From positions 160,001 to 224,000 of the forward strand of contig BK006934.2 in assembly GCA_000146045.2 (NCBI GenBank): a stretch of 64,000 nucleotides of DNA, read 5' to 3'. Positions 8,890-15,547 of this stretch are shown here, piece after piece. The stretch is from TPA_inf: Saccharomyces. Taxonomy: Eukaryota. Below the pieces are notes generated by a model. That model was given only the letters and a program-made list of their open reading frames with translations. It was not told where the DNA came from and made no database searches. Made by a program: the position numbers and the translations under genes. Numbering within the stretch: the first letter of the stretch is position 1; each line of letters opens with the position of its first letter.

Positions 8890-9170
8890 CTAAAAATATT
8901 TTCTATCTAATCCAAACTCCAGCTCTTTTTCAAGGTCTAGAAGCGTGCCGTTATCATTCTGAGGCGGAATATCTGCGGTATTTCCAGTGGCAGGTCTCAT
9001 CTCCATCATACTCTCTTGAGGTCGAGGTGGGAAATCTGCATCATGCCTTGGCAAATTTTGGGAGTGAATACCAAATGATTCTTGTTGTGGCGCAACAGAA
9101 TTAGACGTGGCCATCTGTTTTGGATAATTTTCTTCACTCGCTGCGGCGTTGCCATTATCCACATCTGAAG

Positions 9171-9219
<49 letters not shown>

Positions 9220-10344
9220 TAATTGTAATTGCCTTTGCTCTTCTAATAGCGGTTGTCTCACAAACAGCCTGAAATCTTGCACTTCTTGTATAACCATTTG
9301 TTTTAAGTCCTCCATATCATTAACCGATTCAAAACTAAATTCGAATTTTTCACTACACACAGGTTCGTCAGCTGGATCATGCCATATAGACAAGTAAGGA
9401 TGCTCCAGGGCCTCATCCACGGTAATTCTCTTTTGAGGGTCAAACGCGAGCATTTGCTCCAATAAGTCTAATGCTTGTGAATTGGCATTTGGGTATAAAT
9501 TGACAAAAGGTACTTTTGGAATGAAACCTAATTGATGTATGTAGTCCTGAACATTTTTAGAACCAATCCTTCTTAAAGTTTCGTCTGGGGGTGTCCCTAA
9601 AACTTGTAATATTTGATTCAATTGATTAACGTAATCCTTTCCTTTGAAGATTGGCTTTCCACCAAGAAACTCCGCTAAAATACAGCCAGCTGACCATACG
9701 TCAATCGCCTTGGTATATCCTTGGTAACTCAACATTATTTCCGGAGCTCTATACCATCTAGTGGCCACGTACTCCGTCAAAAATTGACTGTTTTCGACAG
9801 GATTCTCCGAATAACCTCTAGCTAACCCAAAATCACAGATTTTCAATTGACAATCTGCATTGACAAGCAAATTGCCGGGCTTCAAATCACGATGCAAGAC
9901 ATCTGCAGAATGAATATACTTTAAACCACATAATATTTGGTATGTGAAACTTTGATAGTGAGCATCCGTCAAAGGTTGACCGGATTTGATGATTTGGTGC
10001 ATATCACATTCCATAAGTTCCTCATAAAGATATAGTCCATTGATAGACCCGTCTGGATAAAAAACAATATCCATATCATAAAGACATGTAATATTTTTGT
10101 GGCCTCTGAAATGTCTCAAAAGCTTTAGCTCACGTAGGGATCTTTTACATAGTAAGGTCTTCGAAAAAACGTTTGTCACTTTCTTGATGGCAACTGTGGT
10201 ATCTTCGGCAGCTTCTGCAAACCGCGCTGAACACACTATGCCGTATGCTCCATGCCCTATTTCTTTGATAAGTTGAAACCTCTTATCTACACTGAAATCT
10301 TGATTGAAGACCTTGAAAGTATGCCTCTCTATCTTATCAGCCAT
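8890..10344 (-). CDS. SLT2: Cell-wall-integrity MAP kinase Slt2/Mpk1 (484 aa)
   Basis: Ser/Thr kinase domain with a TEY activation loop ([14 protein letters not shown]), and a C-terminal poly-Q tract of 16 Q. 484 aa. Confidence 0.92.
9170..9220 (-). repeat. Imperfect CAG/CAA trinucleotide repeat encoding the Slt2 poly-Q tract
   Basis: The plus strand reads (CTG/TTG)n. The minus strand encodes [16 protein letters not shown]. Confidence 0.9.
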
Positions 10345-10798: not shown

Positions 10799-12970
10799 TC
10801 ATTTCAAAGTTTCTAAACGTTTATAGAAATCTTTTACTCTTTCATTGGTGCGAATCTTTCCTGGATCAAAGTTTAGGACCTGTAAGGTGTCCATAGTTAC
10901 CGCTCTTGACAGTGCAACATAAACTTGGCCGGCTTCGAAAATTCTCCTCAAGTCGACCTTTAGTCTTTGAATAGTTTGACCCTGTGCCTTATGAATGGAC
11001 AGTGCCCAGCATAGCATTAATGGAATCTGAGTTCTTTCTAACCCGACATTTTCTCTGGGAATATCAATGGGAAAGCGCTCTGGGACCATGAGCTCATGTA
11101 TGTACTTGTTTTTACCCACTGTCCACCTCACATAGGGGAATTTTTCCTTATGCGGAGAGATCTTAACTGCATAGTTTATCAAGATTTTCAAACGTTCCAA
11201 TCTAGCTAATGGCCTGGCATTCAAATCTTGACGAAACTCCTTTGATTCCTTTAACAAGGGATTACCAATGACCCGACTCACTAATCTCATGTCCATGACA
11301 ACTTCGTCATCCACAATCTTGTAAATTTCCTTCATTTTCACCACCAGCGATTCTGTAACAAAAAACAAAACTTTTCCCAATGATCCATTAACTAATTCTA
11401 CATCAGGCTTATTTTTCAACATCATTACCTGTGCATCTTCCTTCAATGCGACAACTTTTTCCACCATTAATGAAGAATCTAGTATCGCTTGGTATCTCTC
11501 GGGCGCGTTATCTACAGCTTTAAACTCATATAAATCACCAGGTAGAGACTGTAATTTCTTTACGTTGGATAGTTCAACTTCTCTTCTTGTGGCATACAGT
11601 TCTGTAGGAGCAATTCCATCGGCATAGTCTATATCCCTATTTAGGTTCCTTATTGTTTTAGCAATGTCGACAGTCAGCTCTCCGTATCTTATGGCATTTA
11701 GAATATCAATTAGTTTGTTATCCTGTTGTCTGAAAACCTTTGTCAGTAAAATCGTTTTTTGAATGCACCGTTTCCACATTTCACTTTCAAAACAAAATTT
11801 CACAACGTTATGCTCGTCCTTCTTAGCAACTGGTGGTAGTTGAAAAAAATCGCCTGTCAGGACCAATTGAATACCACCAAAGGGATCGTCGTTCTTCCGA
11901 ATTCTCCTTGCGATTTGCTCTAATTTATCCAACAGATTACCATCGACCATAGAAATTTCATCAATTATCAAAACTTTTGTATACCTCCATGCGGCCAATA
12001 AGTCCTTTTGTGATTGTATTTTTTTCACCAATTGGTCGATAGTTTTGTTCCCGATTCCTATACCAGACCACTTATGCAATGTGGAACCACCAATAGTCAC
12101 TGCCGCTAGCCCAGTTGAGGCGGTAATTGCAATTGATTCTTTCCCATACAAAGAGCTCAATTGTCTTATGATCGTTTGCAAAATGACCGACTTACCTGTA
12201 CCCGCACTACCGGTGTAAAAGACATTTGTTCTTTTTTTGACGATTAAATTAACCACTCTCTCTTGCTCCATTGTAAGTACCACTGGCGAAGACGCACTTC
12301 GGTGGTTCATTGAGTCCATATTTGATACTGTCTTTCTTAGCAGTGGTTTTATTTTCTTTGGTACTGTGAGCTTTAAACCTTGAAACTCCATAGAAGGTTT
12401 AGACCTCTTGGCTGGTCTTTCTGAATCAGTAGAAAGTTTCATGCTAGAATCTTCAATATTAATTGTACTAGTGAACGATAATTGTCTAGAATTGGATTTC
12501 ACGCTAGTAACCTCTCGCAAAGTCTCATCCTCATCAAAATGGTATGTTTTCTGAGTCGTGGACGCAGAGGCAGTCTTATGAAGAGAGCTGGTCATCGACA
12601 GCGATCTGCTAGACTTTTTATAGCTATTGAGTCTCGGCACATCTACCAATTTTTTGAATTCTGCGTCGGGATCATCATCTCCAAACGAACCTTGACTCTG
12701 CGAGAATAAGGAAGACGAATTATTCCGTATTAATCTTGGCCTAGGAGGTGCTGTTATATTACGGTTACCTTCGTCACCGCTTTCCAAATCAATTATTGTC
12801 GTGCTGTTTTTTGAAGCAGCAGCAGATTTTTTGCCGCAACCCATAAAGAACGAAGACAACGTTTGTTGCCTGTATGCGTGAGAGCCAGATGCCGAAGCAG
12901 CAGGTGTGCTACCATTTGAGGATCTTTTAGACCATTGCTTCTTGTTACCGGAGGCATGCGACCTGAACAT
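10799..12970 (-). CDS. RRM3: Pif1-family 5'-3' DNA helicase Rrm3 (723 aa)
   Basis: 723 aa. Walker A GSAGTGKS and Pif1-family helicase motifs, with a Ser-rich disordered N-terminus. Confidence 0.9.
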   Translation of the reverse strand: MFRSHASGNKKQWSKRSSNGSTPAASASGSHAYRQQTLSSFFMGCGKKSAAASKNSTTIIDLESGDEGNRNITAPPRPRLIRNNSSSLFSQSQGSFGDDDPDAEFKKLVDVPRLNSYKKSSRSLSMTSSLHKTASASTTQKTYHFDEDETLREVTSVKSNSRQLSFTSTINIEDSSMKLSTDSERPAKRSKPSMEFQGLKLTVPKKIKPLLRKTVSNMDSMNHRSASSPVVLTMEQERVVNLIVKKRTNVFYTGSAGTGKSVILQTIIRQLSSLYGKESIAITASTGLAAVTIGGSTLHKWSGIGIGNKTIDQLVKKIQSQKDLLAAWRYTKVLIIDEISMVDGNLLDKLEQIARRIRKNDDPFGGIQLVLTGDFFQLPPVAKKDEHNVVKFCFESEMWKRCIQKTILLTKVFRQQDNKLIDILNAIRYGELTVDIAKTIRNLNRDIDYADGIAPTELYATRREVELSNVKKLQSLPGDLYEFKAVDNAPERYQAILDSSLMVEKVVALKEDAQVMMLKNKPDVELVNGSLGKVLFFVTESLVVKMKEIYKIVDDEVVMDMRLVSRVIGNPLLKESKEFRQDLNARPLARLERLKILINYAVKISPHKEKFPYVRWTVGKNKYIHELMVPERFPIDIPRENVGLERTQIPLMLCWALSIHKAQGQTIQRLKVDLRRIFEAGQVYVALSRAVTMDTLQVLNFDPGKIRTNERVKDFYKRLETLK

Positions 12971-13343
12971 CGGGATGTCTTATAAGAACAAATCTCTCGA
13001 CTTTTGAGCTTGTTCTCCTCTGCTTATTGTTCGAGATGATGTTTATTTACATATTCTTTGACGTAATAATATCGGAATAATGCATGCGCATTCGGGTTAG
13101 CCCCGTTATAGGGAAAATGAAAAAAAAAAAAATAATAAAAAAAAAAAAGACTAAAAAAATAGAAGAGCACGGCAACTTAAAAAGAAAAAAAAAATTTATG
13201 ATAACTACAAAATAGTAAAGAACCCTGGCAAAAGAAATAAATCCGGTAAGGGAAGATAGACCGGCTTAAAAAGTACTTTTTCAGATTTGTCAAGGGTCTG
13301 TGTTAGCGGTGAAGAAGATAGAAGAAGAAGACGAAAGAAGACT

Positions 13344-15089
13344 ATGTCTAAACAATTTAGTCATACCACCAACGACAGAAGATCATCGATTATCTACTCC
13401 ACCAGTGTCGGGAAGGCAGGGCTTTTCACGCCTGCAGACTACATCCCACAGGAGTCAGAAGAAAACTTAATTGAGGGCGAAGAGCAAGAGGGTAGTGAAG
13501 AAGAACCTTCCTATACCGGCAATGACGATGAGACGGAGAGGGAAGGTGAATACCATTCGTTGTTAGATGCCAACAATTCGCGGACATTGCAACAAGAAGC
13601 GTGGCAACAAGGTTATGACTCTCACGACCGTAAGCGGTTGCTTGACGAAGAACGGGACCTGCTAATAGACAACAAACTGCTCTCTCAACACGGCAACGGT
13701 GGGGGAGATATAGAAAGTCACGGACATGGCCAAGCAATTGGACCGGACGAGGAAGAAAGACCAGCTGAGATTGCAAATACGTGGGAGAGCGCGATCGAGA
13801 GTGGTCAGAAAATCAGCACAACTTTTAAGAGAGAAACGCAAGTGATCACGATGAATGCGTTGCCGCTAATCTTCACCTTTATCTTGCAAAATTCGTTGTC
13901 ACTAGCATCTATTTTCTCCGTCTCACATTTAGGGACGAAAGAGCTAGGTGGTGTTACACTCGGTTCTATGACTGCTAACATCACGGGTCTTGCTGCTATT
14001 CAAGGTCTGTGTACATGTCTGGACACACTGTGTGCGCAGGCATACGGTGCCAAAAACTACCACTTGGTGGGTGTGCTAGTGCAGAGATGTGCTGTGATCA
14101 CCATCTTGGCGTTCTTGCCAATGATGTATGTTTGGTTTGTTTGGTCGGAAAAGATCCTAGCACTAATGATTCCGGAGAGAGAACTATGCGCGCTAGCGGC
14201 TAACTATCTACGTGTAACCGCATTCGGTGTGCCAGGATTCATCCTTTTTGAATGTGGTAAGAGGTTCCTACAATGTCAAGGTATATTCCATGCATCCACA
14301 ATCGTGCTCTTTGTGTGCGCACCCTTGAACGCATTGATGAACTACTTACTTGTTTGGAATGACAAGATTGGGATTGGGTACCTTGGTGCGCCATTATCGG
14401 TTGTGATCAACTACTGGTTGATGACGCTCGGATTACTAATATACGCAATGACCACCAAGCACAAGGAGAGACCACTCAAATGCTGGAATGGTATCATCCC
14501 TAAGGAACAAGCATTTAAGAACTGGCGTAAGATGATTAACCTAGCTATTCCCGGCGTGGTGATGGTGGAGGCAGAGTTCCTCGGCTTTGAAGTGTTGACA
14601 ATTTTCGCTTCCCATCTGGGCACCGATGCCTTGGGCGCTCAGTCGATTGTGGCTACGATTGCGTCTCTTGCATACCAAGTGCCTTTCTCTATCTCCGTTT
14701 CTACCAGTACACGTGTAGCCAATTTTATCGGCGCGTCGCTATACGACAGCTGCATGATCACGTGCCGCGTGTCCTTATTGTTGTCCTTTGTGTGCTCCTC
14801 AATGAACATGTTCGTTATCTGCCGTTATAAGGAACAAATCGCAAGTCTATTTTCTACTGAGAGCGCTGTAGTGAAGATGGTCGTGGACACACTACCTCTT
14901 CTTGCGTTCATGCAATTATTCGATGCCTTTAATGCGTCCACCGCCGGATGCCTACGTGGTCAAGGGAGACAAAAAAATAGGTGGGTACATCAACCTAGTC
15001 GCATTCTACTGCCTAGGTGTGCCCATGGCATATGTGTTAGCATTCCTGTATCATCTGGGTGTAGGCGGCTTATGGTTGGGTATAACTAG
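13344..15089 (+). CDS. ERC1: MATE-family transporter Erc1, a 581-aa frameshift-truncated allele
   Basis: MatE TM repeats follow a hydrophilic N-terminus. The first ATG at 13344 gives 581 aa. The last ~37 residues ([18 protein letters not shown]...) look like out-of-frame text after the A7 run at 14971-14977. Confidence 0.85.
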
Positions 15090-15198
15090 CGCGTTGGTAA
15101 TGATGAGTGTGTGTCAAGGATACGCCGTTTTTCATGGTGATAGACGCCGTATTCTCGGAGCGGCACGCAAGCGCAATGCTGAGACCCATACATCATGA
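14978..15198 (+). other. Out-of-frame (+1) continuation of the ERC1 MATE C-terminus (last TM segments), separated from the ERC1 frame by an A7 homopolymer
   Basis: The +1 frame after the A-run reads [55 protein letters not shown], a typical MATE TM12 and C-tail. The track shows it as part of a 98-aa TTG-started ORF, 14902-15198. Confidence 0.7.
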
Positions 15199-15547
15199 AA
15201 CTCCTTCAGGGTCGAATGACGTATAGGGGAGATGCACACCCCCACCCCCGCATCACACCCAGTCTTCTAGCCAATTATGTTGGTAATTTTAAGGGTTTCG
15301 CCATGTGGCATGCCACCGGCAAAATAATACACGTGCCCGTACGGCACCAAACGGGCATGCATTTTTGCATTTGAAAAAGTTTGCTGCCCTTCATGTGCTT
15401 TTATGTATGCATACACATACACATTCGTGCATACATTCATTTATATATATATAGAGTGTGCATCGTGCATATGATTATTCATTACCACTTTTTTTGTTTT
15501 TGATTTTGTTCGTCAAAAGGAAGAGAAAAGGCATATCGAAGGGTGTA

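Follow-up and report, generated by a model that had tools for sequence, protein, structure and literature searches.

Whether the yeast ERC1 gene truly ends where its open reading frame stops is the question raised by a run of seven adenines close to its 3' end. In the 64,000-nucleotide stretch of DNA analysed here (the window), ERC1 (YHR032W) is read on the forward strand from 13344 to 15089 as a 581-aa MATE transporter without TM11 and TM12, a description that draws on translation, Pfam and phmmer. An initial annotation had proposed that this reading frame is cut short by a frameshift in the A7 run at 14971-14977 and that the lost end persists out of frame. It is almost certain that the ERC1 allele in the window is the laboratory one of S. 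cerevisiae S288C/BY, a MATE-family gene truncated by an A6 to A7 insertion. The insertion itself, the homology of the restored frame and the ancestral state are shown here by sequence comparison, whereas what is said of phenotypes and of confinement to laboratory strains comes from the literature; the assignment of the allele to a strain rests on agreement with published descriptions.

Read in frame 0 from the ATG at 13344, the gene reaches a TAG stop at 15087-15089 and yields 581 aa. The run in question (AAAAAAA, 14971-14977, forward strand) sits in the context GGTCAAGGGAGAC-AAAAAAA-TAGGTGGG, and a scan for homopolymers of at least six bases in 13345-15198 turned up this one alone. Removal of one A lengthens the product by 36 residues to 617 aa and carries it to a TGA stop at 15196-15198, a translation that the initial annotation had given correctly. 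The frame departs from the native one after Lys544. As encoded, residues 545-581 are 37 missense codons (NRWV...VGYN) that together with the premature TAG occupy 14976-15089 on the forward strand, and this 37-aa tail has no Pfam match at E<=1. The displaced native C-terminus lies in the +1 frame of the same strand at 14977-15198, as 73 codons (IGGYINL...ETHTS) followed by the native TGA. Translation and hydropathy place within it, also on the forward strand, TM11 at about 14995-15051 and TM12 at about 15055-15132, the latter followed by a cytoplasmic tail. The Kyte-Doolittle profile of the restored tail has two hydrophobic segments, at residues 551-569 and from 571 to about 596 (the second peaking at 571-589), and both are absent from the frame-0 tail. 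The lost end had been described at the outset as a canonical final MATE TM helix and tail; that it is a MATE C-terminus stands, but the loss comprises two helices (TM11 and TM12), as Fehrmann et al. also state.

The surroundings of the gene are readily described. A 484-aa protein kinase (Pkinase) ORF on the reverse strand (8890-10344) has its coding start at 10344, 3 kb from the ERC1 start at 13344; a 723-aa PIF1-like helicase, likewise on the reverse strand (10799-12970), lies upstream of ERC1 between the two, and a 423-aa protein with amino-acid-kinase and PUA domains (AA_kinase+PUA) lies downstream. We take this order to be SLT2-RRM3-ERC1-YHR033W of S. cerevisiae chromosome VIII. Breunig et al. 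(2014, PMC3945093) placed ERC1 3 kb from SLT2, in agreement with the window. The divergent spacer between the helicase gene and ERC1 holds poly(dA) tracts of 13, 12, 7 and 10 A's at 13117-13200, which are typical of a nucleosome-depleted yeast promoter. At the other end of the gene, a 59-aa ATG ORF on the forward strand (15195-15374) begins within the native ERC1 stop, the two overlapping as ATGA at 15195-15198; it has no match in Pfam and is itself overlapped by a 57-aa antisense ORF on the reverse strand (15267-15440). Both are presumably dubious ORFs of the ERC1-YHR033W intergenic region. A tRNA scan found no tRNA genes in the window.

The +1-frame stretch is real coding sequence, and three independent tests agree on this, namely Pfam profiles, solved structures and an HMMER database search. 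ERC1 contains two tandem repeats of the MatE family (Pfam PF01554, MOP superfamily; gathering cut-off 24.9 bits), scoring 224.6 bits in the encoded protein and 238.5 bits in the restored one. In the encoded protein the match of the second repeat spans positions 3-142 of the 161 in the profile and breaks off at residue 544, exactly the point of the frameshift; in the restored protein it covers positions 3-161, the tail supplying positions 143-161. The C-terminal half scores 103.1 bits against MatE when restored and 89.9 bits when truncated. The initial annotation had proposed a MatE profile check of this kind and had held that a +1-frame peptide without a MatE match would speak against its reading. 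The restored protein does gain score and complete repeat 2, but the 73-aa tail searched by itself against Pfam has no MatE match at E<=1, which is literally the adverse outcome. This is a weak test of the reading, as the tail accounts for only about 20 positions of the profile and TM12 lies outside the Pfam model.

Comparison with solved MATE structures gives a similar picture. In phmmer searches, residues 139-591 of the restored protein align with human MATE1 (9r10) at 199.6 bits, and its residues 161-608 with Arabidopsis DTX14 (5y50) at 160.5 bits, compared with 161.7 and 111.7 bits, respectively, for the truncated protein. Alignments of the truncated protein end at residues 539-545 in nine of nine solved MATE structures (at 545 in MATE1 9r10), whereas those of the restored protein reach residues 585-610. 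Together with the lack of a Pfam match, this bears out the earlier statement that the 37 residues after the shift are devoid of MATE character. The junction is aligned at high posterior probability (structure-side example GRQDIGAYVNLAAYYLFGIPTAILLAF).

Sequence databases carry the comparison to a much larger set of proteins. A query consisting of the 58 residues before the junction and the 73 after it (P0001), searched with HMMER against 1.84 billion representatives, gave 4941 matches at E<=0.001. Of the top 150, all but one cross the junction and extend to query residue 96 or beyond. The exception, P0004, is the S288C-type truncated protein, and its alignment ends at query residue 58. Chance does not explain such a pattern, given that the +1-frame peptide is identical to P0001 and has thousands of MATE homologues that span the junction. 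A 12-TM architecture with a complete second MatE repeat (the C-lobe, TM7-TM12) is lacking in the protein as encoded and present in the restored frame. ERC1 in the window is a truncated member of the MATE family by descent.

Other alleles of the gene indicate which form is the older. A word-indexed protein search with a 122-aa restored junction peptide returned four proteins (P0001-P0004), none of which was a named Saccharomyces sensu stricto orthologue. P0001 (131 aa) is 100% identical to the restored translation and is encoded on 10 contigs, 9 of which were retrieved (L001-L009); P0002 is 75% and P0003 66% identical, and P0004 is the truncated form. The nine retrieved sequences, independent ENA metagenome contigs that are 99.1-99.6% identical to the window over 14800-15260 (461 bases), all carry A6 (GAC-AAAAAA-TAGG), all align to the window with a single-base gap at the run, and encode the exact restored tail. 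Both of the more distant yeast homologues, L011 (A6) and L010 (CAGAAAAT), are in frame as well, with tails 66-75% identical. These two ERC1 homologues, from ENA ERZ12302807 (L011) and Logan SRR28345895 (L010), have about 70% DNA identity, and in L010 the downstream neighbour lies on the opposite strand relative to the window, so that local synteny differs.

Three SNPs occur among the A6 contigs (15012, 15046 and 15141), and all of them are synonymous in the restored frame; read in frame 0, the same changes are P>S, P>L and stop>Q. Such a pattern is the mark of selection on the restored frame. Between the +1-frame tail of the window and the A6 alleles there are zero amino-acid differences. Given that the native C-terminus is thus undamaged in the +1 frame, the insertion is recent. 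As judged from these alleles, the in-frame A6 run is the ancestral state and the A7 frameshift the derived one. Two proposals of the initial annotation are upheld by these comparisons: that the ERC1 frame, 581 aa as written, is truncated by a frameshift at the A7 run, since A6 is found in nine of nine near-identical contigs; and that a longer ancestral gene preceded it, since the A6 alleles and the two distant homologues are in frame and the exact restored tail is encoded in nine contigs.

A single further copy with A7 was found. This sequence, taken from a Logan assembly (L012), shows no difference from the window across 14414-15503 (1090 bases) and is the same laboratory-type allele. The count of A's in other alleles, which had been suggested as a check, stands at A6 in the nine contigs and in L011 and at A7 in this window-identical copy, L010 having CAGAAAAT. 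L012 (1-1112) matches the window exactly to 15503 and then continues with 23 A's that are absent from the genome, as would be expected of an ERC1 transcript with a poly(A) tail. Such a transcript would end (15503) about 45 nt upstream of the ATG of the next gene (15548), and the implied ERC1 3'UTR would extend about 414 nt past the premature stop or about 305 nt past the native stop. Close to the run on the forward strand is an AvrII site (CCTAGG, 15012-15017), the first base of which, C15012, is linked to A7; in nine of nine A6 contigs this base is T and the site is lost. Fehrmann et al. (2013, PMC3817403) genotyped the BY and RM alleles of ERC1 by an AvrII RFLP and mention two SNPs directly downstream of the frameshift. 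We infer that their RFLP is the site at 15012-15017.

The ERC1 frameshift allele is already published and well characterised, and is not new. Fehrmann et al. (Mol Syst Biol 9:695, PMC3817403) mapped a locus for expression noise of Pmet17-GFP to ERC1 and described a BY-specific frameshift by which the final two helices of the 12 are cut off. In their survey the carriers are the laboratory strains BY4741/2, S288c, W303 and FL100 and the related CLIB324 (their Fig. 4D), and 20 other S. cerevisiae strains as well as S. bayanus lack the frameshift; a comparison of S. paradoxus and S. bayanus is also reported, as are Ka/Ks values of 0.05 and 0.025. Causality was proven by reciprocal allele replacement, the swaps altering Pmet17-GFP noise. 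Breunig et al. (PMC3945093) found that the indel alters 37 residues and that the BY slt2/erc1 haplotype leads to lower SAM and SAH. They give the RM peptide as 43 aa longer, compared with 36 aa (581 to 617) here, a discrepancy that could reflect a difference in counting or an RM-specific variant. Albert et al. (2018, PMC6072440) list the ERC1 frameshift as the known causal variant of a 645-gene eQTL hotspot, which is tied to down-regulation of the MET regulon. The link between ERC1 alleles and SAM that the initial annotation had drawn is correct in substance (PMC3945093, PMC6072440). As cited in PMC11978678, Kanai et al. (2017, 2020) found that the sake-yeast allele of ERC1 contributes to high SAM and folate. 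Further accounts describe BY4741 erc1-delta as sensitive to 5-oxoproline and ERC1 overexpression as conferring ethionine resistance, SAM accumulation and 5-oxoproline resistance. In PMC3870980 and PMC13228021 ERC1 is named just in passing.

In principle, the extra A could be no mutation at all. Homopolymers are error-prone and the frame downstream of the run is fully intact, both of which would fit a miscount in sequencing or assembly with an actual gene that is whole. This explanation is nevertheless exceedingly improbable, for the same A7 occurs in the independent Logan assembly, identical over 1090 bases. The A7 run is moreover linked to C15012 and its AvrII site, absent from nine of nine A6 contigs, and therefore belongs to a distinct haplotype and is no miscount; in addition, the frameshift has been manipulated experimentally in BY and RM, and phenotypes were seen (PMC3817403, PMC3945093, PMC6072440). 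An equally minute chance attaches to the idea that the 98-aa ORF on the forward strand at 14902-15198 encodes an independent small membrane protein, which might even complement the transporter in trans as a split MATE. It offers an open frame, two hydrophobic helices and internal ATG codons. Against this, its start is a bacterial-type TTG that was picked mechanically, its first 25 residues correspond to ERC1 sequence in the wrong frame and lack homologues, all other alleles have the stretch as the in-frame end of ERC1, and the phenotypes of the BY allele show any supply of TM11-12 to be ineffective (PMC3817403, PMC3945093, PMC6072440). The ORF is the displaced ERC1 C-terminus and not an independent gene, just as the initial annotation had read it: it covers the same +1-frame stretch, whose tail peptide is identical in P0001.

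Programmed recoding would be a subtler way for the gene to escape its frameshift, whether by +1 ribosomal frameshifting or by transcriptional slippage on the A7 run; full-length Erc1 would be restored, and the shift would leave the gene functionally intact or serve to regulate it. Polymerases can slip on A-runs at a low level, the native tail is undamaged in the +1 frame and BY erc1-delta still has a phenotype, all of which lends this idea some appeal. It is very unlikely all the same. Conservation of the site and of a two-frame organisation among orthologues is the hallmark of programmed frameshifting, whereas here the shift is unconserved: the other S. cerevisiae-like alleles (nine of nine) are single-frame, as are the two distant homologues. 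Programmed -1 frameshifting was rejected: a -1 slip on A_AAA_AAT meets a TAG at once (frame 2), and therefore only the rarer +1 event would restore the frame. The consensus of the transcript-like L012 is itself A7. Finally, converting the frameshift and two adjacent SNPs alone changes the phenotype (PMC3817403), and any restoration is therefore far from complete.

A laboratory allele truncated by a one-base insertion, the preferred reading, accords with the published S288C/BY erc1 allele on every substantive point. Both have the 484-aa kinase 3 kb upstream, 37 altered residues, 12 predicted helices of which the final two are missing, and an adjoining AvrII polymorphism, with non-laboratory strains in frame; nothing substantive differs, the extension being 36 aa here and 43 aa in Breunig et al. 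The A6 to A7 homopolymer nature of the indel is without mention in the literature consulted on the allele and is documented here. Wild, wine and sake strains of S. cerevisiae (RM11-1a and Kyokai 7 are examples) carry intact ERC1 alleles, which are at least 99% identical to the window in DNA over 461 bases and identical in the protein sequence of the tail once the extra A is removed. These alleles differ in having A6, 12 TM helices and 617 aa in the alleles seen, in contrast to A7 and 581 aa in the window, and they are associated with higher SAM and folate accumulation (Kanai et al. 2017, J Biosci Bioeng 123:8, cited in PMC11978678). More broadly, the solved eukaryotic MATEs (human MATE1/SLC47A1 9r10, Arabidopsis DTX14 5y50, Camelina 5xjj/5yck) resemble Erc1 in having two MatE repeats, and restored Erc1 aligns with them from TM1 to TM12, whereas the encoded S288C protein lacks TM11-12. 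Erc1 differs from them in an acidic N-terminal extension of about 160 aa that is without MATE similarity. Several other loss-of-function or hypomorphic alleles of the S288C lineage act as QTL or eQTL hotspots, among them the HAP1 Ty insertion, MKT1, AMN1 and FLO8. Part of these are listed in PMC6072440. Like erc1 they are laboratory-derived defects whose trans effects in crosses of BY with RM are pleiotropic; they consist of Ty insertions, missense and nonsense changes, whereas erc1 is a homopolymer +1 insertion.

The events at this locus are best pictured as follows. A single A was gained in the ancestral A6 run to give the A7 run at 14971-14977, most likely through replication slippage. With the frame shifted after Lys544, native residues 545-617, comprising TM11, TM12 and the C-terminal tail, are lost; in their place the protein has 37 unrelated residues before it ends prematurely. 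The encoded product is left with 10 TM helices and a C-lobe that is incomplete and may be destabilised or partly active. Allele replacements in the literature show reduced function, namely lower SAM and SAH, lower expression of the MET regulon and lower MET17 expression noise. The allele is probably a hypomorph, not a null, because BY4741 erc1-delta is reported to be 5-oxoproline sensitive and ERC1 overexpression to be protective. Whether the A7 run might also act as a reversible switch in laboratory strains is a more speculative matter, and the idea is unlikely to be correct. Reversion of A7 to A6, or slippage at a low level during transcription, would bring back 12-TM Erc1 and might explain some of the ethionine-resistant or SAM-accumulating ERC1 alleles from S288C-related backgrounds, the putative 10-TM product being a hypomorph with residual export.

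The implications extend to how this gene is annotated and studied. The yeast reference annotation of ERC1, at 581 aa, is that of a defective laboratory allele, and annotation pipelines would best treat 14902-15198 as the displaced C-terminus of ERC1 and not as a separate ORF. Work on the structure and substrate of Erc1, on SAM and folate or on the MET regulon that is carried out in S288C or BY makes use of a transporter without TM11-12. In BY x RM crosses, the same allele is the documented cause of the 645-gene eQTL hotspot and of differences in SAM/SAH and in expression noise.
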